This document shows, one piece after another, positions 1 to 14,890 of a DNA stretch of 15,772 bases. The notes beneath the pieces are model-generated. The model worked only from the letters and a program-made list of their open reading frames with translations. It did not search any database and was not told where the DNA came from. Made by a program: the position numbers and the translations under genes. Within the stretch, counting starts at the first letter, position 1. The number at the start of each line of letters is the position of its first letter. The DNA comes from Cyanobacteria bacterium P01_D01_bin.156 (GTDB lineage: Bacteria > Cyanobacteriota > Cyanobacteriia > Phormidesmidales > Phormidesmidaceae). The DNA lies in assembly GCA_039024555.1 (NCBI GenBank), contig JBCCQQ010000097.1, positions 1-15,772 of the forward strand, written 5' to 3'.

Positions 1-117
1 GGGGAGGACGTTGCTTAATAAAATCCTGCTTGGAATTTTATTTTTGTGCAATCGCCTAATCATCGATCAATAGAGTTTTGTAGTCTGTTGATAACAAATA
101 GTAAAAACTGCCAGGAA

Positions 118-159
118 GTAGACTACTATACAAACTATGCGACTGGCGCTTGCTAACGT
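118..159 (+). promoter_or_regulatory. NtcA-activated (class II) promoter: GTA-N8-TAC box plus TAN3T -10 element
   Basis: GTAgactactaTAC at 118-131, exactly 22 nt spacer, then TAACGT at 154-159; matches the established cyanobacterial GTAN8TAC-N22-TAN3T architecture. Confidence 0.6.
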
Positions 160-716
160 TGCATAGTTGAAGACTTGAAACACAGGCCCTGCAAGATGTT
201 AGTGCTATTTATCTACTTTTCATCTCTAAGCCCGTGTCATGAACCCTCCAACTTAAATCTTAAGGAGGGGAGACTTCACAAGCACTTGCTCAAATGGAAT
301 GGTGTGGGTTCTCCTTACGCCAGGGTGCTTGTGTAAGCCTGTATGACGGTTTAGAGCTACTTGATTTTTAGGAGCTTGGTCAAAGTGTTTTGGCCAATAA
401 GGTGATTGTTGCTCCTACACATCGTGAAGTGGACTCATGGCGATTGCTGTGAAAATTTCTGGTAGCTCTGGTAGTTCTCAAACCGTAGGCTTTACGGAAT
501 TCGATGCTGTTTTGACGTCGGCATCTGCAAGCTTTTTGTTCTAATTTGTTCACCTCTCTGCGTCTAGGTGATTTATCTAGTGCTTAAATGTGTCAGTTCC
601 AACTGTGGGGTGGATTGACGCATTTGAACTTAGCTGATTTAAGCATTCCTGGGTGGGGAAATGCTTGGTATTCTGTCGCAGATACACTACTGCATCATGA
701 GGAGTGACCGTTCTCG

Positions 717-1499
717 ATGACATCATCATCTTTAAGTAATCAATGCATTCTTATTACCGGTGCCAGCAGCGGTATTGGTAAATCCTGTGCTCGATTTTTT
801 GCCCAGGCAGGAGCCCGACTTATCTTGGCGGCTCGTCGCCAGGAGAAACTGCAATCTTTGGCAGAAGAATTGCAAAAGTCTTATCAAACCCAAACATTAC
901 TGCTGTGTGTCGATGTCCAAGATTATCAGACTGTGGCCACCACCTTTGAAGGCTTACCTGCGGACTGGAAGACCATTGATGTCCTGATTAATAATGCTGG
1001 TTTGAGTCGAGGTCTGGACAAACAGTACGAATCTCCCGTGCAAGATTGGGAGGAAATGATCGACACCAATGTTAAAGGGCTGCTGTATGTCACCCGAGCT
1101 ATTGTGCCAGGAATGGTGGCGCGAGGACGAGGCCATGTGGTCAATATTGGTTCTATTGCCGCTAGACAAACCTACATGGGGGGGAGTGTTTACTGTGCGA
1201 CCAAAGCCGCCGTTAAGTCGTTATCTGAAGGATTAAAAATTGATCTATTGGGGACTCCTGTACGGGTGACAAATATTGAACCTGGGTTAGTGGAAACGGA
1301 GTTTAGCAATGTCCGATTCCGGGGAGATGACACTAAGGCTAATTCGGTCTATACGGGCATGACGCCTCTCACACCAGATGATATTGCTGACACAATTTTA
1401 TTTGCAGTGACTCGCCCTGCCCATGTCAACATCAGCGAAATTTTTGTCATGCCTACGGACCAATCTTCCGTGACGCATGTTCATAGGAGAACGGTTTAA
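717..1499 (+). CDS. NADP-dependent short-chain dehydrogenase, YdfG/IsfD-like (3-hydroxy acid dehydrogenase / sulfoacetaldehyde reductase-like)
   Basis: TGASSGIG nucleotide-binding motif, ARR (NADP preference), NNAG, catalytic S...YCATK, ETEFSNVRFRGD and PAHVNI segments typical of the YdfG subfamily; GAGGAG RBS upstream. Confidence 0.9.
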   Translation: MTSSSLSNQCILITGASSGIGKSCARFFAQAGARLILAARRQEKLQSLAEELQKSYQTQTLLLCVDVQDYQTVATTFEGLPADWKTIDVLINNAGLSRGLDKQYESPVQDWEEMIDTNVKGLLYVTRAIVPGMVARGRGHVVNIGSIAARQTYMGGSVYCATKAAVKSLSEGLKIDLLGTPVRVTNIEPGLVETEFSNVRFRGDDTKANSVYTGMTPLTPDDIADTILFAVTRPAHVNISEIFVMPTDQSSVTHVHRRTV

Positions 1500-1501
1500 C
1501 G

Positions 1502-2224
1502 ATGGAGCTGATTATTATTATCACTACGTTTGTAGCGGCCTTTGTCCAGGGTGTTTCAGGCTTTGGTTTTGCCTTAGTTGCCATGCCAATTTTATCGGGT
1601 GTAACCAGTATTCAAACGGCGGCTCCTTTAGTGGCGCTCACGACCCTTACCAATAACCTTCTGCTGTGCCTCTATTACCGGCAGTCGTTTAATCGTACTG
1701 TTGTCAAAAATTTGTTGTTGGGCTCAGTCTTGGGCATTCCCATTGGTTTTTTAGCTCTAGAATATCTGCCAACAGCACTGATGCTAATTACCCTAGGCAT
1801 CATTATCGTTGGCTATTCTATATATTCCTTAGTAAGCCCAGTAATCCCTGTTTTGAAATCCAAACTGTGGGCCTATGGTGCCGGGTTTTTATCAGGAATT
1901 CTGTTAGGGTGCTTTAATTTGCCGGGACCCCCCATCATTCTCTATGGCAGTAGTCAGCGGTGGTCTCAGGAATTATTTAAAGGCAATCTCAGCAGTTTTT
2001 TCTGGATAAGTGTAGCCATTGTTGTTGTAGGGCATGGATTACAGCAACGGATTTCAGCAGATATTATGCGTCAGTTCTTAATGGCGTTTCCCAGTTTACT
2101 GTTGGGGTTATGTTGTGGTGTGGCGCTAGCGAAGAAGTTTGATCCTAATGTTTTCCGAAAAATTGTCACTATTTTGTTGTCCATGGTTGGAGTAAGGCTG
2201 ATTATTTCCGGCGTTTATTTATAA
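1502..2224 (+). CDS. TauE/SafE (DUF81) family sulfite/organosulfonate exporter
   Basis: 240 aa, highly hydrophobic, AAFVQGVSGFGFALVAMP N-terminal motif and second-half G(I)LLG..NLPGPP repeat; starts 2 nt after the SDR stop (coupled). Confidence 0.88.
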   Translation: MELIIIITTFVAAFVQGVSGFGFALVAMPILSGVTSIQTAAPLVALTTLTNNLLLCLYYRQSFNRTVVKNLLLGSVLGIPIGFLALEYLPTALMLITLGIIIVGYSIYSLVSPVIPVLKSKLWAYGAGFLSGILLGCFNLPGPPIILYGSSQRWSQELFKGNLSSFFWISVAIVVVGHGLQQRISADIMRQFLMAFPSLLLGLCCGVALAKKFDPNVFRKIVTILLSMVGVRLIISGVYL

Positions 2225-2282
2225 CTGGAAAATCATTTCTTAGAAAAGACATTAATGCCTTGAAATAGAGGTGTTTGCCTAT

Positions 2283-2312
2283 GTTTCAATTTTTTTGACA
2301 AAAAATTGAAAC
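2283..2312. repeat. Perfect 13-bp AT-rich inverted repeat (possible operator or terminator)
   Basis: GTTTCAATTTTTT-tgac-AAAAAATTGAAAC between the TauE gene and the aminotransferase. Confidence 0.6.
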
Positions 2313-2377
2313 GTCTTTAACGCACAATCCTACGGCATTAAGATTAGCTTTTCTTAATAGGAATCTTGTGTTAGATC

Positions 2378-2420
2378 GTGTGTAAATATACAGAAGAGAG
2401 CTTTTGATCCCCTTTATTGT
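2378..2420 (+). promoter_or_regulatory. Candidate NtcA-like promoter for the aminotransferase
   Basis: GTGtgtaaataTAC (2378-2391; GTG-N8-TAC variant), 23 nt spacer, TATTGT -10 at 2415-2420. Confidence 0.4.
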
Positions 2421-2575
2421 ATTGAACAATATTTAAAGGAATTTGCATCATAACAAGAGTGCTTTGTGGGTGAACTTTCTGTAAGGAGGGTACGACGGAA
2501 GCACGGTTGGTTATGACGTAAATGAGATTTTATTAGCTCTTTAAAAATGCTCTTTCGCTTTGGGGACTATTTTTG

Positions 2576-3964
2576 ATGGTTGCTAGTTTGAGTCCAGAAA
2601 AGGCTAATTTAGGCAAGATGGATGCCGATTCTCTTTGGCATTCGTTAGTCCAGCACAAGCCATTTTCTGAAAAGCCCCCCAAGTGTATGGCCAAGGGGGT
2701 GGGCTGTTATGTGACAGACACAGACGGCGTGGAATACTTTGATGGTGTTTCTGGATTGTGGTGCGTGAATGTGGGGTATGGTCGCCAGGAGCTGGCGGAA
2801 GTAGCCTATGAGCAGATGGTGGATCTAGCCTATTTTCCCATTACGTCCATGGGGCATGAGCCAGGTATTCGTTTGGCCCACAAGCTGTTAGAGCTATTGG
2901 GCTATGAGGGGAAGGTGTTCTTTTCCACAAGTGGCTCAGAAGCCAATGAAGCCGCCTTTAAGATTGCCCGTCAGTACCATGCTCAGACATCGCCTGCGGG
3001 GTCTGGTCCACGCTACAAGATTATCTCTCGCTATCGTGGTTACCATGGCCACACTATGGGAGCTTTGAGCGCAACCGCCCAGGCTGAACGCAAGCTTAAG
3101 TATGAGCCCTTGGTGCCAGGCTTTCTTCACGTGAGTCCTCCTTATTATTATCGGTTTGGCGATGGACAGCCGGAGGATGTTTACAATGCTGCCTGTTTGC
3201 GAGAGCTGGAACAGACGATTCGCTATGAAGGGGCAGAATCTGTTGCCGCAGTGATTGTGGAGCCTATTATTTCCGGCGGTGGTGTGATTCCACCTACCAA
3301 GGGCTATCTGCGTGGGGTACGAGAGATCTGCGATCGCACTGGTATCCTTCTCATCTACGACGAAGTCGTTAACGGCTTTGGTCGCACTGGCAAAATGTTT
3401 GGCCATCAGCATTGGGGTGTGGAACCCGATATCATCAACTTTGCCAAGGGTCTTACCAGTGGCTATATGCCCTTATCCGCGACGGTGGTCAAACAACATG
3501 TTTTTGAAGCCTTTCTAGATGAGCCTGGCAGCGACAGTCACTTTCGTCACATTACCACCTATGGTGGCACCCCCGTTTGTACAGCCGTAGGCTTAAGAAG
3601 CATTGAAATTTTAGAAAGAGAAAACCTGTGTGAGCGTGCTGCTGAAATGGGTGACTATCTTCTCGGCAAGCTACAGCGGCTGTTGGACCACCCCAACGTG
3701 GGAGACATTAGAGGTAAGGGATTACTGCTTGGTATAGAGCTAGTAAAAGACAAAGTCAGTAAAACACCCTTAGATAGCGACATTATTGCTTCAGTCCCCC
3801 GTTACTGTATGGATAAGCAGATCATTATTGGTCGCAACACCAATACGATTCCCGGATTTACCAATGTGTTGATTATGGCTCCACCATTGGTCATTAGCCG
3901 AGAAGATGCCGATCGGTTGGCTGATACCGTTTGTGATGCTGTTTTTGCGATGCCAAGTTCCTGA
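2576..3964 (+). CDS. Class III PLP-dependent omega-aminotransferase, taurine:pyruvate aminotransferase (Tpa/YhxA)-like
   Basis: SGLWCVNVGYGR, SGSEANEAAFKIARQYH, YRGYHG, RKLKYEPLVPGFLHV, EPIISGGGVI, DEVVNGFGRTG, PLP lysine in FAKGLTSGY, FRHITTYGG; from recall these resemble Bacillus/Geobacillus taurine:pyruvate aminotransferases. ATG at 2576 follows a GGGGA RBS (the ORF track starts at TTG 2573). Confidence 0.88.
   Translation: MVASLSPEKANLGKMDADSLWHSLVQHKPFSEKPPKCMAKGVGCYVTDTDGVEYFDGVSGLWCVNVGYGRQELAEVAYEQMVDLAYFPITSMGHEPGIRLAHKLLELLGYEGKVFFSTSGSEANEAAFKIARQYHAQTSPAGSGPRYKIISRYRGYHGHTMGALSATAQAERKLKYEPLVPGFLHVSPPYYYRFGDGQPEDVYNAACLRELEQTIRYEGAESVAAVIVEPIISGGGVIPPTKGYLRGVREICDRTGILLIYDEVVNGFGRTGKMFGHQHWGVEPDIINFAKGLTSGYMPLSATVVKQHVFEAFLDEPGSDSHFRHITTYGGTPVCTAVGLRSIEILERENLCERAAEMGDYLLGKLQRLLDHPNVGDIRGKGLLLGIELVKDKVSKTPLDSDIIASVPRYCMDKQIIIGRNTNTIPGFTNVLIMAPPLVISREDADRLADTVCDAVFAMPSS
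3330..3337. repeat. HIP1 octamer GCGATCGC (one of 7 copies)
   Basis: Copies at 3330, 4604, 6492, 8418, 9202, 10545 and 11222; over-representation is a cyanobacterial hallmark. Confidence 0.9.
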
Positions 3965-4031
3965 CGTTGCTTAGAAACGAGTCATAAAGGAGCATCGGCT
4001 ACCCAGGTAGATCGGATTATACGTTCCTTTT

Positions 4032-4063
4032 AGGCCCCCAATCTCAAATTTTGGTGGGGGCTT
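4032..4063 (+). terminator. Intergenic stem-loop (weak terminator or processing hairpin)
   Basis: GCCCCCA (4034-4040) pairs with TGGGGGC (4055-4061), followed by TTT, downstream of the aminotransferase stop. Confidence 0.4.
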
Positions 4064-4201
4064 TAGAGATTTACTGTCTCTATGGCTGGTCAATGTTAAA
4101 ACTCACCCTAGATCTTCTGACGGTGAAAACCAATGGAAGCCCTTGAGAAAGGGGAAATAGATACAATCTCTCAAATATCTCTCACTTGGAGTCCCGATCC
4201 G

Positions 4202-5764
4202 ATGCAGAAGCCGCTGTTTAGGCTAAAATATTACCTCTACGCCCTTGCCTGTTTACTGATTTTTCTTCCCCGAGTCGCCTTTGCCCAAGATGCTGCTGCC
4301 CCAGTTGGCTTTTTAGGCTCGATAGAAGCTGGTGTGCAAAGCGTTGTCGATGTTCTCAACCTGGTCTTCTACTTTAGGATAGGTGGCGAGAACGGCATGC
4401 CGTTTATTGTGCTTTGGTTGGTTGTTGGTGCTGTTTTCTTCACTTTTCGACTCAAGTTTATCAACATTCGCGCCTTCAAACATGCCATCGATGTGGTGCG
4501 TGGCAAATACGACAGTGATGAAGATGAAGGGGATGTCTCTCACTTCCAGGCCCTGGCCGCAGCCCTGTCTGGAACTGTGGGCATTGGTAATATTGCTGGT
4601 GTTGCGATCGCGATTCGCCTAGGTGGTCCAGGGGCAGCCTTTTGGATGACCATGGCCGGTTTCCTTGGCATGTCCAGTAAGTTTGCCGAATGTACCCTCG
4701 GTCAAAAGTACCGTGTGATTAAACCCGACGGCACCGTTGGGGGTGGTCCCATGTATTATCTATCCCGTGGGTTGTCGGCCATGGGCATGGCCCCAGTCGG
4801 TAAGGCCTTGTCCGTTATTTTCGCCGTCATGTGTGCCATTGGTAGCTTAGGCATTGGCAATATGTTTCAGGCGAACCAGGCATTTGCTGCTGTTTCTAAT
4901 GTGTTGCCATTTCTCACAAGCCTAAGCTGGTTGTTTGGCCTGTTCTTAGCATTAACGGTTGGCTTGGTAATTCTCGGTGGCATTGAGCGTATTGGTGCAG
5001 TGGCTGGTGTATTAGTCCCCTTTATGGCCGTGATCTATGCCATAGCCTGTTTTTGGGTAATGTTGGTGAAACTGCCTCAGGTTCCCAGCGCCATTGGTAC
5101 CATTATTTCCACGGCCTTTAGCCCAGAAGCCGTTGCCGGTGGGGCCATTGGTGCCTTGGTGATTGGATTTCAGCGGGCGGCATTCTCCAATGAAGCCGGT
5201 TTAGGGTCAGCCGCCATTGCCCACTCTGCCGCCAAAACAGATGAACCGGTGCGAGAGGGAATTGTCGCATTGCTAGAGCCCTTTATCGATACCATGTTCA
5301 TCTGTAATTTGACCGCCATTGTGATTGTGCTTACTGGGGTCTATGCCGATCCCACAGCGGTTGATCTGAATGGCGCTCAACTGTCGGCAGCATCGTTTGA
5401 AACGGTGATTAGCTGGTTTCCCTATGTGATTGCAGTTGCTGGATTTTTGTTTGCGCTGTCAACCATGATCTCCTGGAGCTATTATGGCCAACAAGCATGG
5501 GCTTTCCTCTTTGGGGAGAGTACCACAAACATTTACAAGGGTATTTTTCTCTTCTGTGTCTTTGTAGGTTCGGTCGTGAATCTAGGACCCGTTCTAGACT
5601 TTAGCGACATTATGGCCCTAGCAATGTCGCTACCAAATTTACTGGGTTGTTTTCTGATGTCAGGCTTAATAGCTAGAGAATTAAATAGCTACATGGCCCG
5701 TCTGAAGTCTGGGGAGATGCTACCCACTCCTCAAGTACCCCAAGAAACCGTATTGCGGAGATAA
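4202..5764 (+). CDS. Alanine/glycine:cation symporter (AGCS family, AgcS/AlsT-like)
   Basis: SHFQALAAALSGTVGIGNIAGVA, GGPGAAFWM, GGPMYYL, GNMFQANQ, RAAFSNEAGLGSAAIAH, LLEPFIDT, STMISWSYYG motifs. Start more likely ATG 4202 (GGAG upstream) than 4133. Confidence 0.93.
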   Translation: MQKPLFRLKYYLYALACLLIFLPRVAFAQDAAAPVGFLGSIEAGVQSVVDVLNLVFYFRIGGENGMPFIVLWLVVGAVFFTFRLKFINIRAFKHAIDVVRGKYDSDEDEGDVSHFQALAAALSGTVGIGNIAGVAIAIRLGGPGAAFWMTMAGFLGMSSKFAECTLGQKYRVIKPDGTVGGGPMYYLSRGLSAMGMAPVGKALSVIFAVMCAIGSLGIGNMFQANQAFAAVSNVLPFLTSLSWLFGLFLALTVGLVILGGIERIGAVAGVLVPFMAVIYAIACFWVMLVKLPQVPSAIGTIISTAFSPEAVAGGAIGALVIGFQRAAFSNEAGLGSAAIAHSAAKTDEPVREGIVALLEPFIDTMFICNLTAIVIVLTGVYADPTAVDLNGAQLSAASFETVISWFPYVIAVAGFLFALSTMISWSYYGQQAWAFLFGESTTNIYKGIFLFCVFVGSVVNLGPVLDFSDIMALAMSLPNLLGCFLMSGLIARELNSYMARLKSGEMLPTPQVPQETVLRR

Positions 5765-5769
5765 TTGAG

Positions 5770-6195
5770 ATGAGTTGGCTTAACCGAAAATCTGTTCTCA
5801 TTCCCATTGATTTCTCTGAACTTTCCTATCAGGCAATCGGACCCGCTAAAGAACATGTTGAAGACCTGACAGCATTAAACCTGATTCATGTGCTGGCCCC
5901 CTTACATCCGGCTGATCCGGCTGCCATGTGGGATACAGTCAGCGATGAGGACCGTAAAGAGAAAGTTCGAGCATTTACGCGAGATAAGCTCAGCGAGCTG
6001 GGATATGGCGATATTCACACTGAAGTTGTCATTGGTGACACCACATCCAAAATTGTGGACTATGCCCAGGAAATAGATGCAGACCTGATTGTGATGCCAT
6101 CCCATGGGCGTAAAGGGGTGAGTCGTTTTCTATTAGGCTCTGTCGCTGAACAGGTTGTGCGGTTGTCCCACTGTCCGGTGCTGATTCTTAAGTAG
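5770..6195 (+). CDS. Universal stress protein (Usp family)
   Basis: VLIPIDFS N-terminus and ADLIVMPSHGRKGVSRFLLGSVAEQVVRLSHCPVLI C-terminal ATP-binding USP motif; 5 nt after the symporter stop. Confidence 0.93.
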   Translation: MSWLNRKSVLIPIDFSELSYQAIGPAKEHVEDLTALNLIHVLAPLHPADPAAMWDTVSDEDRKEKVRAFTRDKLSELGYGDIHTEVVIGDTTSKIVDYAQEIDADLIVMPSHGRKGVSRFLLGSVAEQVVRLSHCPVLILK

Positions 6196-6207
6196 AAGAA
6201 TCGGCTT

Positions 6208-6245
6208 TTAGACAGCTGCCCATTTCCCAGTAGGCAGCTGTCTGA
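6208..6245 (+). terminator. Stem-loop at the end of the aminotransferase-symporter-USP unit
   Basis: AGACAGCTGCC (6210-6220) / GGCAGCTGTCT (6233-6243), perfect 11-bp stem 14 nt after the USP stop; no strong U-tract on +. Confidence 0.55.
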
Positions 6246-6437
6246 TCGAATAAGCAACGATAGAACCACATGCGCCACAAATTATTCGCCGTCAGTGCTT
6301 GGACCAAATTACAAATAATTGTAGAAACCTTGACTACCTATTCCTAGAGTTTCTAAGACCAAAGATATGGCTGACGTATACCGTTAAGACCGAAGATGGT
6401 TGATAATAGATAGCGTTGTTACAAACGTTAATCCATC

Positions 6438-6902
6438 ATGCCTGTACCCACTAATCTAGCCACATTGGATGGCCAGCCATTGAGTCCAGATGCGATCGCG
6501 AATAAAGTCGTCCTATTCGTTAACGTTGCCAGTGCGTGTGGTTTAACTCCCCAGTACGGTGGCTTGGTAGACCTAGATAAAACCTATGGCCCCAAAGGCT
6601 TAGTTGTTGTTGGTGTTCCCTGCAACCAGTTTGGTTCCCAGGAACCCGGTACTGCTGACGAAATCAAAGACTTTACCAAAACCAAGTACGACGTAGACTT
6701 CACCCTGCTAGAGAAGCAGGATGTAAATGGTCCTAGCCGTAGCCCCCTATATCAGTTCTTGGTGGGCGAAGGTGAAGACATTGAATGGAACTTTGGCAAA
6801 TTTGTCGTAGGCCGTGATGGTGACGTTGTTGCCCGCTTCGACCCCAAAACAGCTCCCGACGCTCCTGAGCTAAAGGCAGCCATCGAGAAAGCTTTGGGGT
6901 AG
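6438..6902 (+). CDS. gpx2: Glutathione peroxidase-like protein (Gpx2-type hydroperoxy fatty acid reductase)
   Basis: NVASACGLTPQY (peroxidatic Cys), PCNQFG.QEPG, WNFGKF; 154 aa, from recall closely similar to Synechocystis Gpx2, including EIKDFTKTKYDVDF. Confidence 0.9.
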   Translation: MPVPTNLATLDGQPLSPDAIANKVVLFVNVASACGLTPQYGGLVDLDKTYGPKGLVVVGVPCNQFGSQEPGTADEIKDFTKTKYDVDFTLLEKQDVNGPSRSPLYQFLVGEGEDIEWNFGKFVVGRDGDVVARFDPKTAPDAPELKAAIEKALG

Positions 6903-6938
6903 TGGTCAATAATACCAATAACCAATACCACAGTCTGT

Positions 6939-7145
6939 TTGCGCCCCTTCATCTGCTTTAGGATGGAGGGGCGCTCTGTTGAAGTCTTTATCGATCAGAC
7001 CCTTAAGAGTTTAGAACAAGCAGCCATTCCCATCAAAATACCTAGAACCCAGCTGCCCAATGGTTCAATAATCGCCATGGTTGAAGATCCCGATGGCAAT
7101 ATTGTGGAATTTTCTCAAGAAATCTGTGCAGCACAGACTCCGTAA
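6939..7145 (+). pseudogene. 5'-truncated VOC/glyoxalase-family remnant
   Basis: AMVEDPDGNIVEF is the C-terminal VOC signature; only about half a domain, no RBS, no N-terminal beta-alpha-beta unit. Confidence 0.6.
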
Positions 7146-7286
7146 ATCTGACCTTCAGCGTCCGCAAGAACGACTACTTTATAAAATCTATACATTCATA
7201 AATGAAACTTATAAATAGTATCAATGCCAACATGTCTAAAACCGATAGGGGAGTATAACCAGGAAAGTGCGTCTGCCGAGGGCGCG

Positions 7287-7306
7287 ATTGAGAATTATTT
7301 TTCAAT
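7287..7306. promoter_or_regulatory. Fur-box-like palindrome
   Basis: ATTGAGAATTATTTTTCAAT, an imperfect dyad 14 nt before the DUF1816 start, one base longer than an ideal ATTGAGAAT-N-ATTCTCAAT box. Confidence 0.35.
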
Positions 7307-7320
7307 AAGTCCCCCCCAAT

Positions 7321-7560
7321 ATGAAAAATTTTGTAGAGCAAATGTTTGGCTTACTTAATAAGTCTTGGTGGCTAGAAATTCTTGCGGCATCCCCTAGCCG
7401 TGGCTATTACTTCGGCCCATTTAATTCAGAACATGAGGCCGTCCAGGAACAGCTGCGCTATGTAGAAGATATTGAGAGTAAGGGCAGTGAAGTGCTACTA
7501 GTGTCTATTGTTCATCGCCAAGCACCTGCCAAACGCATGGTTGAGTATTCTAATATCTAA
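7321..7560 (+). CDS. DUF1816 family small cyanobacterial protein
   Basis: WWLEI...P...YYFGPF.S..EA......Y.EDI...G pattern, 79 aa. Confidence 0.8.
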   Translation: MKNFVEQMFGLLNKSWWLEILAASPSRGYYFGPFNSEHEAVQEQLRYVEDIESKGSEVLLVSIVHRQAPAKRMVEYSNI

Positions 7561-7611
7561 CCGGCTAAATCGCTTTTGCTACAGAACACTTGGGCTCTGC
7601 TAACAAGCTCC

Positions 7612-7671
7612 AAACTATCCCCTTGAGAATTTGTTGACTGTATTCAGCAGATTCTCAAGGGGATAGTTTTT
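7612..7671 (+). terminator. Long intrinsic terminator hairpin
   Basis: AAACTATCCCCTTGAGAAT (7612-7630) / ATTCTCAAGGGGATAGTTT (7651-7669), perfect 19 bp, extendable to 26 bp with G-U pairs, ends in a T run. Confidence 0.75.
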
Positions 7672-7723
7672 GTGTGAGACTCACCGAACATATCGGTTGG
7701 CGCACATAGGTGTTGCTATTTAC

Positions 7724-7778
7724 TATTGTCGCCTTTAAAAAGACAATATGTCTCTTATTTTGTATATTGTCTTTTTAA
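7724..7778. repeat. Nested inverted repeats with three TATTGTC/GACAATA half-sites
   Basis: TTAAAAAGACAATAT (7735-7749) / ATATTGTCTTTTTAA (7764-7778), perfect 15 bp; additional TATTGTC at 7724-7730. Confidence 0.6.
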
Positions 7779-7802
7779 GGTGCTCTATTCATAATGAAAA
7801 CG

Positions 7803-7893
7803 GGCATTACTGATCCTCGGGATGATTTGATCTGCCAAATCCAGCACTCTGGCCAGATGTACAGATCGTTTCATCCTCTAAATCAGCAATGGC
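7803..7893. mobile_element. ~91-bp MITE-like element, copy 1
   Basis: Ends GGCATTACTGAT ... ATCAGCAATGGC (10/12 inverted), internal GATGA/TCATC and GATCTG/CAGATC dyads; flanks TGAAAACG / TAAAAGCG (6/8 identical, possible decayed target duplication). Confidence 0.6.
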
Positions 7894-7901
7894 TAAAAGC
7901 G

Positions 7902-7992
7902 AGCCTTGTTAATTCCCGAAATGATTTTAGTTGTTGAACCCTGACTCTAAAAGGGGCTTCTAGATCGTTTTATTTCCGGAATCAGCAACGGC
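7902..7992. mobile_element. ~91-bp MITE-like element, copy 2
   Basis: Ends AGCCTTGTTAATTCCCGAAATGA ... TTATTTCCGGAATCAGCAACGGC; same length as copy 1 and 8 bp downstream of it. Confidence 0.6.
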
Positions 7993-8029
7993 TAAGTATC
8001 AAACATCAACTAAAGAGAGGAACATGACC

Positions 8030-8236
8030 ATGGCTAATGTTGAGATTTCTGTTTTAGACAATGGCCCAGTTATTGTGAAAGGAGACTTTTCCTTAAATGA
8101 CGGTGCCCAGAAGCCTTACCCTAAGCAAGAACAAATTGCTTTGTGTCGTTGTGGGGCATCGGCTAATAAGCCTTTCTGTGATGGTGCCCATGCTAAAGCT
8201 GGGTTTAAGGCTGAAGAGCGGGCTCCTGAAGCGTAG
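8030..8236 (+). CDS. CDGSH iron-sulfur domain protein
   Basis: NGP N-terminal motif and ALCRCGASANKPFCDGAH [2Fe-2S] (3Cys-1His) motif; GAGG RBS spacing favours ATG 8030 over 8024. Confidence 0.92.
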   Translation: MANVEISVLDNGPVIVKGDFSLNDGAQKPYPKQEQIALCRCGASANKPFCDGAHAKAGFKAEERAPEA

Positions 8237-8296
8237 AAAGGAATAGCCAACTTTGCACCTGTTGCTCACAACAGATTATAGATAAGACAATAGCCA

Positions 8297-8342
8297 AGCA
8301 GCTATGCCCGTGGTTTATATATGAACCACGGGCATAGCTGCT
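8297..8342. repeat. Perfect 19-bp GC-rich hairpin (terminator/stabiliser or REP-like)
   Basis: AGCAGCTATGCCCGTGGTT (8297-8315) / AACCACGGGCATAGCTGCT (8324-8342), 8-nt loop, no U-tract. Confidence 0.65.
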
Positions 8343-8528
8343 CTAACTCTGGAAAATCTCAGCTGATTGGCAAAGTTGTTGTATGGTCCAGTCGCCTATT
8401 TTGACATGGTTATTTTAGCGATCGCACATGCCAAAAGCCACAGGAGTAAAGTGTCAGGCTAGGGTAATTGCTTTACAGACTTGGCAAGTTATCCACACAA
8501 TAACGGTAGGACTCTAAATAGTAGGCCC

Positions 8529-9824
8529 ATGGCACCTATGGAGCAGACAGACAGCGACATTGACCAGCAGGGCTTGGCATGGCTACCCCAGCTCAGACGT
8601 GAGATCTGGATTTTGGCCACTGGACAGTTGCTTTTGTACATTGGCCAGGGATTTACCCTAGTCTATGCGTCAATTTATTTTGTGAACGATTTGGGGTTTT
8701 CTCCAACTCAGGTGGGGTTAGCCCTCAGCAGCAGTGGTTTAGCAGGAATTGCCGGTCGATTTTGGTCTGGCTATGCCATTGACTCAGACTTTTGGGGTCG
8801 CCGCCGTACGCTAATGTTGTCCTCTGTAATGACGGCCATTGCCTGCTTTTGCCTTGCTGGTGCGACGACCTTTGGGTTGCTAGTGCTAGGCAACATGCTG
8901 CTGGGGTTAGGGATTAGCCTTTATTGGCCTGCCAATTTGTCAGTGACAACAGATCTGACAACGCCAGAAAATCGATCAGAAGCCTTTGCCCTAACGCGAC
9001 TCGTGGATCATTTGGGTTTGGCCCTAGGGGCGCTATTAGCGGGACAATACGTGGCGATGTCCGGCAATTACAGTATTTTGTTTATTCTCAAGGGGGTAAC
9101 CTATCTACTATTTGCAGGGGTAATCTATGTCGCCATTGCAGAAACGCGACAGCCGCTTTCAGAACAGCGAAATGTATGGCAGGACTGGGGGCAGGCGCTG
9201 CGCGATCGCACATTGCTCATCTACCTAAGTGCCAACCTGTTCTTTACCATCTATGCCGCCCAGCACACAAGCACGTTGCCCCTGTACCTGGCAAACTTTA
9301 TTCCCCATGGCAACACAGCGACGGGCTTTTCAGAACAATGGATCAGCTACTTTTTTGTCTGGCATGTGTTTCTAAAAGTTGTTCTGCAGCTGCCCATTAC
9401 CCACTGGGTCAAGACTATCAACTATGTGTCGATTTTGTTGGTGGCCCTAACGGTGTGGAGCATAGCCTTTTTCTTACTTTGGTTAACCGCCGTTGTTCCT
9501 AACGGAGCGCTGTTTGTGGCCATTGCCGCCTTTGGCTTGATTTCCTTAGCCGAGATTCTTTACTCCCCTGCCGGAGTGTCTCTTTTAGGGGAAATGGCTC
9601 CGGAAAATCTACGTGGTATCTACTTTTCTCTAGAATCTCAATGTTGGTCCATTGGCTTTACCGTTGGCCCTGCCATGGGCGGGTGGGCTCTGGATCATCC
9701 TGACATCGTAGGCATTAACCTATGGCTTTACATTATTACCGGTGGATTTGTAGCTAGCGTGATTTTAGCAGTGCTAAAACAACAGCTAACAACGGTGTCT
9801 AATTTGTCGACCGATCCTGTTTAA
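8529..9824 (+). CDS. Major facilitator superfamily transporter
   Basis: About 12 hydrophobic segments, motif-A-like GYAIDSDFWGRRR, APENLRGIYFSL in the second half; ATG 8529 (or 8538) is more plausible than TTG 8481. Confidence 0.9.
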   Translation: MAPMEQTDSDIDQQGLAWLPQLRREIWILATGQLLLYIGQGFTLVYASIYFVNDLGFSPTQVGLALSSSGLAGIAGRFWSGYAIDSDFWGRRRTLMLSSVMTAIACFCLAGATTFGLLVLGNMLLGLGISLYWPANLSVTTDLTTPENRSEAFALTRLVDHLGLALGALLAGQYVAMSGNYSILFILKGVTYLLFAGVIYVAIAETRQPLSEQRNVWQDWGQALRDRTLLIYLSANLFFTIYAAQHTSTLPLYLANFIPHGNTATGFSEQWISYFFVWHVFLKVVLQLPITHWVKTINYVSILLVALTVWSIAFFLLWLTAVVPNGALFVAIAAFGLISLAEILYSPAGVSLLGEMAPENLRGIYFSLESQCWSIGFTVGPAMGGWALDHPDIVGINLWLYIITGGFVASVILAVLKQQLTTVSNLSTDPV

Positions 9825-10882
9825 CGGTGTAACAGCTGTTCCAGACTAGCTTCCATGATGGCAGTGTTCTGCCCTGATACAGAAAAGGCTAGGGCTTCTC
9901 GATACACCCGCTGAGCCGGGTGGTGATTAAAGTTTGCTGCACCTCGGGAGACAATCACAGCGGCATGGGCACAGCGAACGGCTAAGTCAATGGCCCAGGC
10001 CCGTAGACGGATACGTTCGGATGATGGATTTGCCAGAGTGTTGTAGGTTTTGGTGCGACACTGTAAAACCTCTTGGTGGAGCTGGTCATAGACATTCCTA
10101 ACAGTGGGGATTGTGCCTGTCTGAGCTTTTTCTAAAATATCCAGACCTGCCTGGGCACAGCCAAGGGCAAAAAAGTTGTGGGTGGGGGGATAGGTACGAT
10201 CGCTCTTTTGAATCCAGCCTGCAGGTTTAATATCCAAAACCAGTTCTTTGGGTGCCACCCAGTTGTCTAACGTTGCCGTCACCGTTTGGGTGGACCCTAA
10301 GGCCGCTAGTCTCATTGGTTCACTAAACGACAGTGAATTTCCCACATTCTGAAACGGGGCCAATACAAAAACGGACCGCCCATCCGGTAGCTGAGCCGCC
10401 AACATCCAGTGGTCAAAAATTCCAAACCCAGTAATCCAGGGCACCGTACCGTTAAAACAGTAGCCGTCAGTCTTTTCTGTTGCCGTTATGGGCTGCTGGG
10501 CGCGACGCAGGTGAGAAAAACCCACACCTAGACCAATGCGGCCTGCGATCGCGGCCTGAAGATACTTTTCTTTGAGGGCCTGATTATCAGAACTTGCCAG
10601 CTCCTGCACACAGCGCTGATGTTGACTTTGTAAAAAGACTAGTGCCCCCGAGTACCGCGCCAGCTGCTCGGTGTAGCCATAAGATTGCCGTGAGTCCCAT
10701 CCTTGTCCACCCAGCTGTTTCTCTACTTTGAGTCCCAATAGGTGATGAGTCCCTAGTGCTTCAAACGTTTGCTGCAGACAGCTTGGGTCTTGATCTATGC
10801 GCTCTGCGTGGGGTTCAACTAAAGTTTTTAAGAGCGTTTCAACAGACTGAACCGGAGAATTCGTAGCTATAGATAGATTCAT
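9821..10882 (-). CDS. Acyl-CoA dehydrogenase-like flavoprotein
   Basis: LLGLKVEKQLGGQG, KEKYL...G.IGLGVGFS, FNGTVPWITG, HPAQRVYREA motifs of the ACAD fold; stop overlaps the MFS stop (TTAA 9821-9824). Confidence 0.85.
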   Translation of the reverse strand: MNLSIATNSPVQSVETLLKTLVEPHAERIDQDPSCLQQTFEALGTHHLLGLKVEKQLGGQGWDSRQSYGYTEQLARYSGALVFLQSQHQRCVQELASSDNQALKEKYLQAAIAGRIGLGVGFSHLRRAQQPITATEKTDGYCFNGTVPWITGFGIFDHWMLAAQLPDGRSVFVLAPFQNVGNSLSFSEPMRLAALGSTQTVTATLDNWVAPKELVLDIKPAGWIQKSDRTYPPTHNFFALGCAQAGLDILEKAQTGTIPTVRNVYDQLHQEVLQCRTKTYNTLANPSSERIRLRAWAIDLAVRCAHAAVIVSRGAANFNHHPAQRVYREALAFSVSGQNTAIMEASLEQLLHR

Positions 10883-11047: not shown

Positions 11048-14000
11048 TTATGAGCTAAGGTTGAGTTCCTCAGTATCAACAGCCCCTAGATCTTTCAGAC
11101 TGACTCTCTGTACTGGATCAATCCCCGTAATTCCCCTGATTTCCATATTTTCGTAGGGACGTGGGGGTCTAATGGGCTGGCACTCATTACTGATGATGTC
11201 GATGATGTAAATAGTGCCGCTGCGATCGCAGCTCACTAAATGGCGGCTATCCGACGTAAACACTAACGACTGAATCCCCAGCGGCTGGCCAATCAGCATC
11301 GGTATCTCCAGCTGTCTTACCTTCCAAGTTTTAGGATCTTCCATGTGAACATCCTCCCACACATAAATCCGATGGTCGTCGCTACCAGTGGCCATCCAAC
11401 ATCCATCTGGGCTAAACGCAACAGATTTTACCCCTGCAGTTTGGTGCTGTTCTTCAAAACGATGGAGACAGTCTCCTGTTTCGGCATTCCAAATAATCAC
11501 CTTGCCATCGTCGCTACCGCTAGCCAAGAGTAACGACTGTTCAGACTCTTGGCCAAGTTCTGAACCTCGAATGGGTCTAAACGCCACTGACCGAATTCTA
11601 TGTTGATGTTGACCCTGCAAGGGCCGAATTACCTTACCTGTAAATGGATTCCAAAGATAAATTATCTTATCGTCCCCGCCACTGGCCAGATACCGCCCAT
11701 CTCCACTAAAAGCCACTGCGCGAATCCAATGTTGATGCTGAGCCAATACCCGCAGTTTTCGTCCCGTGGGTAACTGCCAAAGACAAATTTGTTGATCATC
11801 TGCCCCACTGGCCAATATCGTACCACTGTGATTAAAAGCCACCGTGCGCACCCAATGCTGATGACCGGTGAGGACTTTAACACAGCAACTTGTCTGTAAA
11901 TTCCAAATTCGAATCGTACCATCATCACTGGCACTCGCCACCCAGTACCCATGGGCTGCAACACTCCACACTCGGCCCGTATGCCCTGCCAAATCTCGAA
12001 TAGGCATATTGGGATTTACCTTAGAGCCCTGCTGCCACAGTTTTATTCTCCAATCATTTCCCCCACTAATGATCAAATCTGGCTTAGGTGTCGATTGCTT
12101 TAGTACAGCCACTGAACGAGTGCCCATCGCAAACCCCCGCAAGATTTTACTGGGCTCAATCGGATGTACAGATTTATGCTGACCAGAAGAGACTTTAGAT
12201 AACACTACAGAGCGATCGTCCCCGCCGCTGGCCAGTAGAGTTTGCCGGTTATGTTGATAAAAGGCAACTGACCATACTCGGCTTTTATGGATTGGAAACT
12301 TACCAATGGGAGCTCTTCTGTTAAAGTCCCACAAAATGATTGTGCCATCGTCACTACCACTGGCAATGTAGTCGTCATTTGGGCTCACGGCCACCGAACG
12401 AACTCGATCCGTATGTTCTTTCAAAACTCGAATACAGGACTGAGTTTTCAGGTCCCATAGCCGAACTGTTTGATCGTCACCGCTGCTCACTAGGTAGCGA
12501 CCACAGGAAGAAAACGCCACCGAACGAGCCCAGCCTGTGTGGCCCTTGGTAACCGAAGAGATAAAAATCTGTTCTCCACTCTGCCAGTCCCAAACTCGGA
12601 CAGTCATATCATCTCCACAGCTGGCAATCCTATCACCGTTGGGGCTAAAGGCAATATAGCGCAGCGTCTCATTACCCATGGATATTGCCGATCCACGGTC
12701 AGTTGTTTGTAACTTTACGATTTCTTGGTGAGTTAGTTCATCGTATAAATAAATAACTCCATGACTGCAGCAAGCAATTATTTCTTGCTTTGGATGAAAT
12801 GCTACTGAACGCACCCAGTCTGGGAATCCATCTTTTTCCCACACTAAAGAAATATTGTTAAGGCTTGGGTGGTCGTCAGGACTCGGATGAAATCGCCAAA
12901 GTTTTAGTCTGCTGTCATCCCCACCAGTGGCCAACAATGTGTTGTCACGGTTAAACGCCAGCGATCTTACCCAGCCTAAATGCCCCTGCCAGTAGGTACG
13001 CTTTTTGTAGGTCAGCGCATTCCAAATATGAATGTGGCCGTTAGTATCACCTGCAGCCACATAGGGCGCAGCCAGAGTATTAGTATCACTTTGGTTATAG
13101 GTAAAATTAACGGATACTACATCACTCAGCATTTCGGTGAAGACAGACTTCTCTAAGTTACAGTTGTTAAACTTAGTCTTGGTGAGTTTGACTCCTTCGA
13201 GATCGGCTTGCCAAATCGCTAAGTCGGAAAAGTTTTTGTTGCTTAAATTCTTAGACTCATTGGCTTCTTTAGAGAGTTCGGCCATCAAATTAAACAAATT
13301 TCCACCAAAATACCCAGTTTTGTAGGCTGGATTCTGACGATGGCTATCAAGAATAGTCTCTAGCTTTTTTTGTGTTTCTTCGGTGCTGCCATATTCTTGT
13401 TTAAGTGCCTCTAGTACCGGTATTAGCAAGGTCTCGGTTTGTTGATCCCGCAGAGACCAGTCTGCATTTGCTTTGAGTAAAGAGTGACTGTTCAACAGCA
13501 AATCACCTGAAGCGATGGCTGATTTAGGCGTTGCCAACGCAGTTAGTTCACTAATAATGCATTCAGCTAAGTGCTGGGTAACATACTCCATCACAACAGG
13601 CTGTAGCTTATATCCAGCTCCGTTCTCAAGCACATCAATCAGCGCTCGATGTTCAAGGGAGCGCAGGGTATAGACTAGCTCTTTGCGATTACGCTGAGAA
13701 ACAATATCTAATCGCAAATTGTGGAAAGTCGTAAATGAGCCATTGATGGCGAGCCAATACATGGCTTCTTTTTCTAGAGCCGTAAGACGGGTGTCAAACT
13801 GTTGCTTTAAAATATCCCGAAGGTCGTCAAATACTAACCGATTTTGCTCAAAAAACTCCTGAATTGAACCGGCAAATAACTCTCTGATGGTTGTAGCTGC
13901 TAGTTTAAGCGCCAGGGGATTACCTGCATAGCAGTCAAGCAGCTGCTGTTGCTGCTGTTGGCCCAAATTATCAAGTCCAGTCTGATGTAAAATATGCCGG

Positions 14001-14890
14001 GCGTCGCTATCCTTAAGTCCAATTAAGGTACGCAGCCGCACCTTGAGTTTGTCTCCCTCTGAAGCGATGAGCATTTGGGGCTTTTCTCGACTCACAATAA
14101 CGACACAGCTGTGCAGGGGATTCTGGTGGCGAGCACCGCTGATTTGGTCAAGCAGCTCCTGATATAAACCCACATCCTCAGGAATTCCCGAATCGCGTGG
14201 AGATCCTAATACTCCAGCCTGACGATGACGGGAAGCTTCATTGACGTTTGCAGGGGCAGCATTGTCCCTAAACAAACACTCAAACTGATCAAGAATTAGT
14301 AAACATCGCTTTTGAGCTAGTACCTTCAACAGTGCTGTAGGTGTCAACTTAGAAGATTCATCGAGAAAAGACAGAGACTTCAATAGATTTGCAAATGAAC
14401 CGTGCTGTTTAACCGAGCGCCATGCAATCAGTTCAAAATCGTGCTTTAGCTGCTGAGCTAGCTCCACGGCTAAGGTTGTTTTACCTATACCGCCCATACC
14501 GGTCAGGGCAATCAAATCGCAGTGTTCATCCTGAATCCACTGGCATAACTCGCTGAGTTCCTGCTGACGTCCGACAAAATAACTGACCCTAGGGGCATTG
14601 CCCAAATCTAGACTGTCCTTAGCCTGATAATTGGGCAATGCCGCCTGTGCTTCACGGAGCTTCTCCTTAAGCCGTGCGAGCTTGCCAGGGCCTTTACTCT
14701 CAATCCCAAATTTGTGATACACCTCCCCCAGCCGTTTGCGAACAGCCGGATTAGTAATACCTAGTCGTTTTGCGGTATCGGCGTTGGACAAACCATTGAG
14801 TACTAGTATTAATGCCTCACGTTCTGCCTTAGTAACGCCTTTAGCTTTTAGTTGTGAGGCAAGAAAGTCATCCGAGATATCAGGCTCCAT
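11048..14890 (-). CDS. STAND NTPase: LuxR-type HTH + NB-ARC + pentapeptide linker + WD40 repeats
   Basis: N-terminal TKAEREALILVLNGLSNADTAKRLGITNPAVRKRLGEVYHKFGI HTH; FVGRQQEL, Walker A GMGGIGKT, Walker B LLILDQFE, GNPLAL; LSNKNFSDLAIWQADLEG pentapeptide stretch; roughly 13-14 GH..WV.SVAF..LASG.DD...WD repeats; PYENMEIRGITG C-terminus. Confidence 0.93.
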   Translation of the reverse strand: MEPDISDDFLASQLKAKGVTKAEREALILVLNGLSNADTAKRLGITNPAVRKRLGEVYHKFGIESKGPGKLARLKEKLREAQAALPNYQAKDSLDLGNAPRVSYFVGRQQELSELCQWIQDEHCDLIALTGMGGIGKTTLAVELAQQLKHDFELIAWRSVKQHGSFANLLKSLSFLDESSKLTPTALLKVLAQKRCLLILDQFECLFRDNAAPANVNEASRHRQAGVLGSPRDSGIPEDVGLYQELLDQISGARHQNPLHSCVVIVSREKPQMLIASEGDKLKVRLRTLIGLKDSDARHILHQTGLDNLGQQQQQQLLDCYAGNPLALKLAATTIRELFAGSIQEFFEQNRLVFDDLRDILKQQFDTRLTALEKEAMYWLAINGSFTTFHNLRLDIVSQRNRKELVYTLRSLEHRALIDVLENGAGYKLQPVVMEYVTQHLAECIISELTALATPKSAIASGDLLLNSHSLLKANADWSLRDQQTETLLIPVLEALKQEYGSTEETQKKLETILDSHRQNPAYKTGYFGGNLFNLMAELSKEANESKNLSNKNFSDLAIWQADLEGVKLTKTKFNNCNLEKSVFTEMLSDVVSVNFTYNQSDTNTLAAPYVAAGDTNGHIHIWNALTYKKRTYWQGHLGWVRSLAFNRDNTLLATGGDDSRLKLWRFHPSPDDHPSLNNISLVWEKDGFPDWVRSVAFHPKQEIIACCSHGVIYLYDELTHQEIVKLQTTDRGSAISMGNETLRYIAFSPNGDRIASCGDDMTVRVWDWQSGEQIFISSVTKGHTGWARSVAFSSCGRYLVSSGDDQTVRLWDLKTQSCIRVLKEHTDRVRSVAVSPNDDYIASGSDDGTIILWDFNRRAPIGKFPIHKSRVWSVAFYQHNRQTLLASGGDDRSVVLSKVSSGQHKSVHPIEPSKILRGFAMGTRSVAVLKQSTPKPDLIISGGNDWRIKLWQQGSKVNPNMPIRDLAGHTGRVWSVAAHGYWVASASDDGTIRIWNLQTSCCVKVLTGHQHWVRTVAFNHSGTILASGADDQQICLWQLPTGRKLRVLAQHQHWIRAVAFSGDGRYLASGGDDKIIYLWNPFTGKVIRPLQGQHQHRIRSVAFRPIRGSELGQESEQSLLLASGSDDGKVIIWNAETGDCLHRFEEQHQTAGVKSVAFSPDGCWMATGSDDHRIYVWEDVHMEDPKTWKVRQLEIPMLIGQPLGIQSLVFTSDSRHLVSCDRSGTIYIIDIISNECQPIRPPRPYENMEIRGITGIDPVQRVSLKDLGAVDTEELNLSS

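Follow-up and report, generated by a model that had tools for sequence, protein, structure and literature searches.

In the known IsfD pathway of taurine-nitrogen use, taurine is imported and transaminated, the product is reduced by an NADPH-dependent short-chain dehydrogenase/reductase (SDR), and isethionate is exported without cleavage of the C-S bond. According to a 2019 study, IsfD clusters had at that time been predicted only in Proteobacteria (PMC6616044), and passages of a 2026 review mention cyanobacteria as producers of taurine, not as its users by such a route (PMC13474568). Here we analysed a stretch of 15,772 nt, referred to as the window, which is the whole of contig C97 (JBCCQQ010000097.1) in the 6.6-Mb, 99% complete genome (G000) of Cyanobacteria bacterium P01_D01_bin.156; the nearest named homologues come from Leptothoe, Adonisia and related Leptolyngbya-like cyanobacteria. 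The window carries a gene cluster that probably serves to scavenge nitrogen from taurine, or from a close aminosulfonate, with excretion of the corresponding sulfonate (isethionate in the case of taurine). Judged by its sequence, it would be a new, cyanobacterial variant of the known pathway. The initial annotation of the window had regarded such a system as not described in cyanobacteria, and a literature search covering titles and the beginnings of abstracts, with supplements and most subscription papers outside it, retrieved no description of the cluster, of taurine-nitrogen use with isethionate release, or of the small open reading frame (ORF) reported below.

The initial annotation had placed five co-oriented genes at 717..6195. 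Five plus-strand ORFs were found there, and NCBIfam and Pfam profiles bore out the proposed families (SDR, TauE/SafE, class III aminotransferase, AGCS symporter and universal stress protein, USP). The cluster extends beyond these positions, with a promoter and a small ORF at 118-336 and an alanine dehydrogenase gene (ald) on the adjoining contig C125. The features are as follows.

1..59, no strand: end of a ~200-bp dispersed repeat at the contig break, where C125 probably continues.
118..159, plus strand: predicted NtcA-activated class II promoter (GTA-N8-TAC, 22-nt spacer, TAN3T -10 box).
196..336, plus strand: 46-codon ORF under coding selection, with no family match.
717..1499, plus strand: NADPH SDR of the YdfG/IsfD group, putative sulfoacetaldehyde reductase (PF00106; NCBIfam; PDB alignment).
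1502..2224, plus strand: TauE/SafE membrane protein, putative sulfonate (isethionate) exporter (PF01925, E 8e-26).
2378..2420, plus strand: degenerate second NtcA-type promoter 5′ of the aminotransferase gene (GTG-N8-TAC, 23-nt spacer, TATTGT).
2576..3964, plus strand: class III omega-aminotransferase dependent on pyridoxal phosphate, putative taurine:pyruvate aminotransferase (PRK07678/3N5M subfamily; trees; fingerprint).
4202..5764, plus strand: AGCS-family amino acid:cation symporter, putative taurine importer (TIGR00835; PDB AgcS 6cse).
5770..6195, plus strand: USP (PF00582), which goes with the AGCS gene.

The open frames begin at TTG 2573 (aminotransferase) and ATG 4133 (AGCS), and the true starts are likely ATG 2576, giving the 462-residue database protein P0001, and ATG 4202, giving 520 residues as in most homologues. 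The SDR and TauE genes are only 2 nt apart. The spacers of 348 nt between the TauE and aminotransferase genes and of at least 168 nt between the aminotransferase and AGCS genes, together with the second NtcA-like site, suggest that the cluster comprises at least two transcription units.

The cluster was compared across 47 cyanobacterial loci (L021-L066 and L070; some of them are truncated, and a few share a genome); as the locus counts come from related genomes, they are not independent. The aminotransferase gene occurs in 19 of 22 genomes of the genus, this one counted, the three without it being 65-75% complete, and in 27 of 401 genomes of a class sample. Its neighbours in the 47 loci are the SDR (30), TauE (30), AGCS (26), USP (22), alanine dehydrogenase (17), a PF11927 gene (10) and TauC/TauA (8). 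SDR and/or TauE genes were found in 32 of the 39 loci with at least 2.3 kb of upstream DNA (both in 23). Downstream, 42 loci extend for 1.5 kb or more, and 32 of these have AGCS or TauC, the two never together. This linkage is not due to chance. Conserved association of the SDR, TauE and aminotransferase genes, on which the initial annotation had staked its proposal, was thus found in the synteny survey.

The aminotransferase scored 606.9 bits against PRK07678 (cut-off 488); its best solved relative was 3n5m (501 bits, vs 218 for the Toa structure 6jix). On this sequence evidence, it is of the pyruvate-accepting 3N5M/Tpa type, which pairs with Ald, and not a Toa. In this it differs from the Klebsiella/Chromohalobacter pathway, with which the initial annotation had compared the cluster and whose aminotransferase is a Toa. 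Bilophila Tpa and the beta-alanine enzyme 3N5M share one subfamily (PMC9418295). Scored against Table 1 of that paper, the window enzyme has R145 and lacks the flipping Arg346 (G346), and its fingerprint reads L-W-Y-R-G-G-N, vs L-W-Y-R-G-G-T in Tpa, with Leu16 as in Tpa and Asn348 as in 3N5M. Asn348 is also present in an enzyme whose gene is linked to Xsc (L175). Some homologues are already called taurine-pyruvate aminotransferase in the automatic naming of the Joint Genome Institute.

Since the family is not decisive, homologues were classed by gene context, and the labels in our trees denote this context. We built a FastTree tree of 114 rows and an IQ-TREE tree of 34 rows (no mixture model), the latter without most of the nearly identical loci from cyanobacteria and Alphaproteobacteria and without fragments below 380 aa. 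The window enzyme fell into a clade with enzymes encoded next to Xsc (Shimodaira-Hasegawa-like approximate likelihood ratio support of 98 in IQ-TREE, local support of 99 in FastTree), and aminotransferases linked to hydA and methylmalonate-semialdehyde dehydrogenase (MMSDH) formed a separate clade in both trees. Among its clade-mates, L069 and L175 adjoin true Xsc genes (over the TIGR03457 cut-off), L069 and L184 adjoin PF03601 sulfate-export-family genes, and others adjoin AGCS and acetate kinase genes, or thiamine diphosphate (ThDP) enzymes not shown to be Xsc. When the cyanobacterial group was constrained to join the hydA/MMSDH clade, the approximately unbiased (AU) test rejected the resulting tree (p-AU 0.0004 if L178 was left out, 0.028 if it was included); the grouping was picked after viewing a tree, and L178, left out of the first test, lies in the rival clade. 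The enzyme thus groups with those of taurine context, apart from those of pyrimidine context. Context can flip within a clade: L083, with a marginal MMSDH neighbour, sits among the Xsc-linked enzymes, and L178, with a PF03601 neighbour, sits in the beta-alanine clade. An N-terminal QH motif present in the window enzyme was found in 4/4 Xsc-linked and 2/2 'tpa'-named enzymes and in 0/5 of those linked to both hydA and MMSDH. In L150, the aminotransferase gene is flanked by an ssuA-ssuD-ssuC-ssuB-like set (SsuD over the cut-off) and tauA.

Two further sets of homologues were recorded. In L071, L092, L170 and L173, aminotransferase genes of a sister clade lie directly 3′ of genes for ThDP enzymes, of which that of L092 is far under the Xsc cut-off and that of L170 gave no match at 1e-95. 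The L067 locus, from a record titled as a Domibacillus metagenome-assembled genome, encodes a GntR regulator, the aminotransferase, tauC-tauA-tauB, an aldehyde dehydrogenase and TauE; its aminotransferase nests within the cyanobacterial ones, through either transfer or mis-binning, and the locus looks like a sulfoacetate-excreting version of the cluster.

The strongest evidence for taurine, at the level of sequence, is the swapped importer. The symporter of the window matched TIGR00835 with 413 bits (cut-off 272.65), and in 8 of the 47 loci TauC/TauA(/TauB)-like genes replace the AGCS gene 3′ of the aminotransferase gene. USP genes were found only where the AGCS gene is present (22/22 USP loci have it; 0/8 TauABC loci have a USP), and an AGCS gene also adjoins the aminotransferase and true Xsc genes in L069. 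The one binding protein searched had E. coli TauA as its best PDB match (166 bits, vs 91 for SsuA). All six contact residues of TauA (Gln30, Gly61, Gly79, Glu106, Thr132 and Asp205; Gln30 was assigned by motif, outside the TauA alignment) are kept in 10 of 12 cluster-linked binding proteins, the remaining two being one truncated protein and one with Ser at Gly61. Glu106, Thr132 and Asp205 are kept in all 12, and Asp205, which is a determinant of TauA versus SsuA (PMC6906117), is present in 0/3 controls. Elsewhere in the genome, contig C94 (L165) carries several SsuA/TauA-like ABC sets, an allophanate hydrolase, a PF03601 putative sulfate exporter, a PRK08275 flavoprotein and a HEAT-repeat protein. 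The two binding proteins checked on C94 both lack the TauA Asp205, and the contig looks like a separate region for organosulfur/nitrogen scavenging.

An alanine dehydrogenase gene (TIGR00518 over the cut-off) adjoins the cluster in 17 of the 47 loci. The search for such a gene in this genome, which the initial annotation had advised, yielded a 91% orthologue, divergent, on C125 and a second ald on C27. The end of C125 overlaps the start of the window by 53 nt, exactly and inside a repeat; because the overlap lies in the repeat, the join of the two contigs rests on synteny. In relatives, ald and the SDR gene are separated by a spacer whose counterpart here is split between C125:4003-4350 and window 56-800, and ald is probably linked to the cluster across the contig break in this genome. 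Between ald and the cluster, a D-amino acid dehydrogenase gene (C125:4406-5662, minus strand; L164; PRK00711 over the cut-off) and the repeat are inserted, and the insertion is flanked on both sides by copies of a 46-bp near-duplicate (91%); a similar gene occurs near a homologous aminotransferase and ald in L171. The ~200-bp repeat, present at window 1-59 and the C125 end, occurs dozens of times in the genome, frequently at the ends of contigs, and is probably an element resembling miniature inverted-repeat transposable elements.

Neither Xsc nor dihydropyrimidinase was found over the cut-off in this genome, and Xsc exceeded its cut-off in 0/22 genomes of the genus, while the positive control was detected. 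Since Xsc is absent at this threshold, the C-S bond would not be cleavable by the Xsc route. Dihydropyrimidinase (hydA) occurs in only 5 of the 22 genus genomes, vs 19 with the aminotransferase. A CoA-acylating MMSDH over the cut-off is encoded elsewhere in the genome. One TauD-family dioxygenase gene (C13:32509-33453) lies beside a probable methyltransferase gene, unlinked to the cluster.

The control region points in the same direction. An NtcA class II promoter consists of GTA-N8-TAC, a spacer of ~22 nt and TAN3T, and promoters of this type are found at genes that serve to scavenge combined nitrogen present in traces (PMC3898017). In the window, GTA-N8-TAC at 118-131 is followed by a 22-nt spacer and the -10 box TAACGT at 154-159, with transcription predicted to start at ~166; the element at 118-159 is, by its sequence, a predicted NtcA-activated class II promoter. 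It contains the only exact GTA-N8-TAC in window 1-6500, and GTA and TAC are invariant in 12/12 aligned upstream regions. Across the 6.6-Mb genome, the complete pattern turns up 99 times when both strands are counted (0.0075 per kb), a rate at which chance would supply such a promoter at ~1% per locus. Among the 37 cyanobacterial loci in which 700 nt or more lie upstream, 27 have a class II NtcA promoter 5′ of the first gene or of the aminotransferase gene, and relatives such as L031 and L032 show, at the place of the second, degenerate promoter, an exact GTA-N8-TAC and a -10 box. This arrangement points to a role in acquiring nitrogen, rather than in assimilating sulfur or making an osmolyte. 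Two nifD genes, on contigs C59 and C71, each lie near a long NifE/N-like open frame, corresponding to two nitrogenase clusters. Taken together, the placement of the enzyme in the trees, the exchange of AGCS for TauABC with its TauA residues, the linked ald, the NtcA-type promoter and the absence of Xsc and dihydropyrimidinase over the cut-offs support the earlier proposal of taurine-nitrogen use with sulfonate export.

The reduction and export steps appear to be the weakest of this explanation. The best NCBIfam match of the SDR was YdfG (PRK10538; 278 bits, under the cut-off of 411), and against solved structures it scored 246 bits with YdfG, 240 with 2nwq and 208 with IsfD (6ixj). In keeping with the earlier assignment to the YdfG type, the enzyme is closer to YdfG than to IsfD, and it is not diagnostic of isethionate. 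Close homologues occur in 182 of 401 cyanobacterial genomes, and the SDR was accordingly rejected as a marker of isethionate formation. The sulfonate contacts of IsfD are Tyr148 and Gln244, and its C-terminal Phe249 reaches into the site (PMC12133307). Y153 and Q249 of the SDR align with these two contacts, which do not discriminate, as YdfG has both too; no Phe was found in the SDR tail at the place of Phe249, a position just past the aligned part. The bit scores and the tail lower the chance that the enzyme is IsfD, not that it works like IsfD. Because IsfD belongs to a ubiquitous 3-hydroxyacid dehydrogenase group (PMC6616044), it is plausible that a general cyanobacterial SDR was recruited here. 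The TauE protein scored 91.6 bits against PF01925 (cut-off 32.6), and a paralogue 37% identical to it is encoded elsewhere in the genome. IsfE is presumably a PF01925 protein as well. The earlier argument that TauE favours a sulfonate thus carries little weight by itself.

Taurine transamination could also be correct with the SDR and TauE as accessories, the sulfoacetaldehyde leaving as such, being oxidised to sulfoacetate by a different dehydrogenase or being reduced by an unlinked enzyme. Neither gene was found in 7 of the 39 loci with enough upstream DNA, L067 combines the aminotransferase and tauCAB with an aldehyde dehydrogenase and TauE, and L061 combines the aminotransferase with TauE and a 2-hydroxyacid dehydrogenase. 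The 2-nt spacing of the two genes here, and their joint presence in 23/39 loci behind the same NtcA promoter, make this very improbable.

Several observations weigh against taurine as the substrate, or against the proposed pathway as a whole. Judged by sequence, family membership leaves taurine and beta-alanine undecided: Bilophila Tpa turns over beta-alanine too (95 vs 250 mU/mg; PMC9418295), position 348 is Asn as in the beta-alanine enzyme 3N5M, vs Thr in the two Tpa sequences tabulated, and a 52%-identical homologue lies inside a pyrimidine-degradation cluster (L142). The tree labels rest on gene context, no characterised Tpa sequence having been placed in the tree, and the QH motif is also found in L083 (MMSDH neighbour barely over the cut-off) and L094 (carbamoylase neighbour). 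The TauA/B/C matches are under the NCBIfam taurine cut-offs (229.5 for the one protein scanned, vs 304 for TIGR01729), and the cluster of the window carries the AGCS carrier, whose solved relative (6cse) is an alanine carrier. The SDR is generic, nearer YdfG than IsfD, and is absent from 11 of the 39 loci with enough upstream DNA. Finally, the genome encodes nitrogenase (two nifD over the cut-off), so another nitrogen source exists.

The alternative named in the initial annotation is scavenging of beta-alanine, by transamination to malonate semialdehyde, reduction to 3-hydroxypropionate by the YdfG-like SDR, and export. The closest solved structure, 3n5m, is of the beta-alanine:pyruvate type and agrees at position 348, YdfG is by its NCBIfam name a 3-hydroxypropionate dehydrogenase, AGCS carriers move alanine-like solutes, and members of the aminotransferase family occur in pyrimidine clusters (L142 and others). 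We consider this explanation quite unlikely, given that the trees set the cyanobacterial aminotransferase apart from the hydA/MMSDH clade, the swap importers are TauA-like with Asp205, the genome has no dihydropyrimidinase over the cut-off, and the TauE, SsuD, Xsc and PF03601 neighbours are all of sulfonate type; moreover, the MMSDH elsewhere in the genome would allow the carbon to be used instead of excreted.

The same logic might apply to another aminosulfonate, such as N-methylated taurines, hypotaurine or homotaurine, with a haem N-demethylase of the relatives first stripping the N-methyl group. A PF11927 gene similar to the haem N-demethylase alpha subunit (PDB 5lte, E 7e-19) heads 10 of the 47 loci, and in the class sample it lies beside the aminotransferase gene in 8 of the 9 genomes having both. 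Unrelated genes of N-demethylase type adjoin non-cyanobacterial homologues (dimethylglycine/sarcosine dehydrogenase-like in L171 and L172, sarcosine oxidase in L092, MttB-like in L081), and some homologues carry the NCBI name hypotaurine--pyruvate aminotransferase. Algae and invertebrates contain N-methyltaurines, on which a literature search retrieved no paper. Against this, the PF11927 gene was not found in this genome or in three other genus members sampled, 76 of 401 cyanobacteria have it, most of them lacking the aminotransferase, and a demethylase would suit N-methylated beta-alanine equally. We regard this alternative as unlikely for the cluster of the window, and N-methyltaurine use as a lead for relatives only. 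PF11927 genes, which resemble haem-dependent oxidative N-demethylases, were rejected as a pathway marker on the same count of 76/401, mostly unlinked; the 30 loci with stand-alone PF11927 genes that were examined (L246-L275) have no conserved neighbours save two aminotransferase clusters.

The suggestion that the substrate is 2-aminoethylphosphonate or its N-methyl forms comes from L064, where the aminotransferase gene follows a gene for a GntR/UTRA regulator and diverges from the C-P lyase genes phnH, phnI and phnJ, and from the fact that 2-aminoethylphosphonate can be crystallised with TauA (PMC6906117). C-P lyase context was seen in only 1/47 loci, GntR/UTRA regulator genes also lie 5′ of taurine-context homologues (L067, L084), and the nitrogen-type promoter and sulfonate-type neighbours predominate, which makes a phosphonate substrate hardly credible.

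In the scheme that we favour, nitrogen shortage would lead NtcA to turn the cluster on, as its conserved canonical promoter suggests. Taurine would be taken up by the AGCS symporter, or by a TauABC-type importer in those relatives that carry one, as judged from the gene swapping. The class III aminotransferase would then convert taurine and pyruvate to alanine and sulfoacetaldehyde, which is consistent with its subfamily, tree position and context. The linked alanine dehydrogenase, whose identity is clear from its gene, would free ammonium and restore pyruvate. By analogy, the recruited YdfG/IsfD-group SDR would use NADPH to reduce sulfoacetaldehyde to isethionate, and TauE would export it. 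We infer both the exact substrate and isethionate as the product.

Taurine is abundant in marine animals, reaching ~1 mM in the pore water of one sponge (PMC10356861), and among the named close relatives are a sponge-associated Leptothoe (PMC8225149) and strains in culture, for example Leptolyngbya sp. PCC 7375 and Synechococcus sp. PCC 7335. Should the scheme be correct, benthic and host-associated cyanobacteria would use taurine nitrogen of hosts or algae and release isethionate, and phototrophs would feed the sulfonate pool eaten by heterotrophs. AGCS-family carriers would gain taurine as a candidate substrate, and a widespread orphan cyanobacterial SDR would have a role in this lineage. 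The scheme would also provide a small leader ORF that can be tested, and would give stand-alone DUF3445 haem proteins a candidate substrate.

The 46-codon ORF at 196-336 begins 30 bases past the predicted transcription start. Compared with 25 homologues over 42 codons, it showed 350 synonymous, 185 non-synonymous and no stop-involving changes in frame, vs 55-87 stop-involving changes in each of the other five frames. It is a real conserved coding sequence. The ORF was found in 32 of the 47 loci (one copy degenerate, several of the misses truncated), always ahead of the first cluster gene, be that the SDR, PF11927, TauE or aminotransferase gene. In the class sample, 16 of 401 genomes gave a strong match, and 15 of these have the aminotransferase, as do 12 more genomes lacking the ORF (15/27 aminotransferase genomes have it); the exception, G190, has SDR and partial PF11927 genes downstream of the ORF. 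A second copy was seen in one genome, where a contig ends. The core reads KEGR(L/R)HxHLxxxxGVGSP, conservation ends after Pro, and tails of 2 to 15 residues follow in the aligned set, and longer ones in database representatives. The ORF had no NCBIfam match and no usable Atlas match, six strong representatives were present among 1.84 billion proteins, and its AlphaFold2 model was uninformative (pLDDT 59).

A structured RNA at 196-336 was rejected: the consensus fold reaches only -2.5 kcal/mol and conservation tracks codons. The leader of the window itself folds at z -2.8, a structure that is not conserved. A 6-bp hairpin at window 245-270, inside the ORF, covers the Shine-Dalgarno-like run AAGGAGG, with 14 double changes at two third-codon pairs in 20 sequences that are related to each other. 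No conserved terminator or other structure was found 3′ of the ORF among the aligned relatives, and the distance to the following gene ranges between 36 and 730 nt.

It is a conserved coding ORF in cis and predicted to be the first in the transcript, as an ORF for a leader peptide would be. It is like metabolite-sensing leader or arrest peptides such as TnaC in being a short first ORF upstream of a catabolic operon and in having a conserved C-proximal stretch that ends in Pro, followed by a free tail of variable length; it is unlike the known ones in that no sequence similarity was shown, the downstream terminator or structure is not conserved and the spacer is variable. SpeFL and SecM are further peptides of this kind. 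The ORF probably tunes expression of the cluster. The way in which it is conserved would suit a leader that arrests elongation, and a small protein acting in trans is no less plausible. That it acts in cis, as a leader of whatever type, is a tentative possibility. Rather unlikely, in our estimate, is the more specific combination in which the ORF is a ribosome-arrest leader sensing a metabolite (taurine, alanine or the aldehyde) and adding substrate control beneath NtcA, and the stand-alone haem N-demethylase of related clusters is an N-methyltaurine demethylase. A degenerate small ORF with an early stop was seen in L070 (and L157), followed by a PF11927 gene and the aminotransferase gene; this locus has no SDR or TauE gene, adjoins a gene for UDP-sulfoquinovose synthase and may be a decaying cluster.

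In the rest of the window, positions 6438-10882 encode a glutathione peroxidase, a DUF1816 protein, a CDGSH iron-sulfur protein, a major facilitator superfamily transporter and, convergently, an acyl-CoA-dehydrogenase-like protein, of which only glutathione peroxidase recurs near the cluster (8 loci). On the minus strand, 11048-14890 encodes a 1280-aa protein which may be STAND-like: on inspection its N-terminus resembles a helix-turn-helix, and it has a P-loop NTPase region, a short stretch similar to pentapeptide repeats and numerous WD40 repeats. A scan for sigma-70 promoters and terminators gave counts at chance level only, and an Rfam scan of 1-8500 revealed no riboswitch, with two sub-threshold eukaryotic matches.

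The cluster can be compared with several known systems. With the beta-alanine aminotransferases of the extended reductive pyrimidine pathway (cluster in L142), which we take to be of PydD type, the window enzyme shares the PRK07678 subfamily and ~50% identity; those enzymes form a separate clade, are linked to preA, hydA and MMSDH, and lack the QH motif in 5/5 examples linked to hydA and MMSDH. The Toa-TauF cluster of Bifidobacterium kashiwanohense (PMC6616044) has an equal overall purpose and likewise lies outside Proteobacteria, and differs in using Toa and the metal-dependent NADH reductase TauF instead of a Tpa-type enzyme and an SDR. The Tpa + Ald module of Bilophila wadsworthia and Ruegeria pomeroyi (PMC9418295) resembles the cluster in subfamily, in 6/7 fingerprint positions and in ald linkage, and differs in Thr vs Asn348 and in its dissimilation genes; the genus sample has no Xsc or other dissimilation genes, and therefore carbon and sulfur would not be used by a Tpa/Xsc-type route. 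Closest in logic is the IsfD pathway, with the same import, transamination, reduction by an NADPH SDR and export without C-S cleavage, an SDR of the IsfD group and, in 8 related loci, a TauABC-like importer. Because the aminotransferase is not a Toa and the SDR is not an IsfD orthologue, the cluster would not be a straight member of that pathway: it pairs a pyruvate-type aminotransferase with alanine dehydrogenase instead of Toa, has an AGCS-USP module in most loci, draws its SDR from a widespread cyanobacterial YdfG-like family, and is headed by a predicted NtcA promoter and a conserved small ORF.

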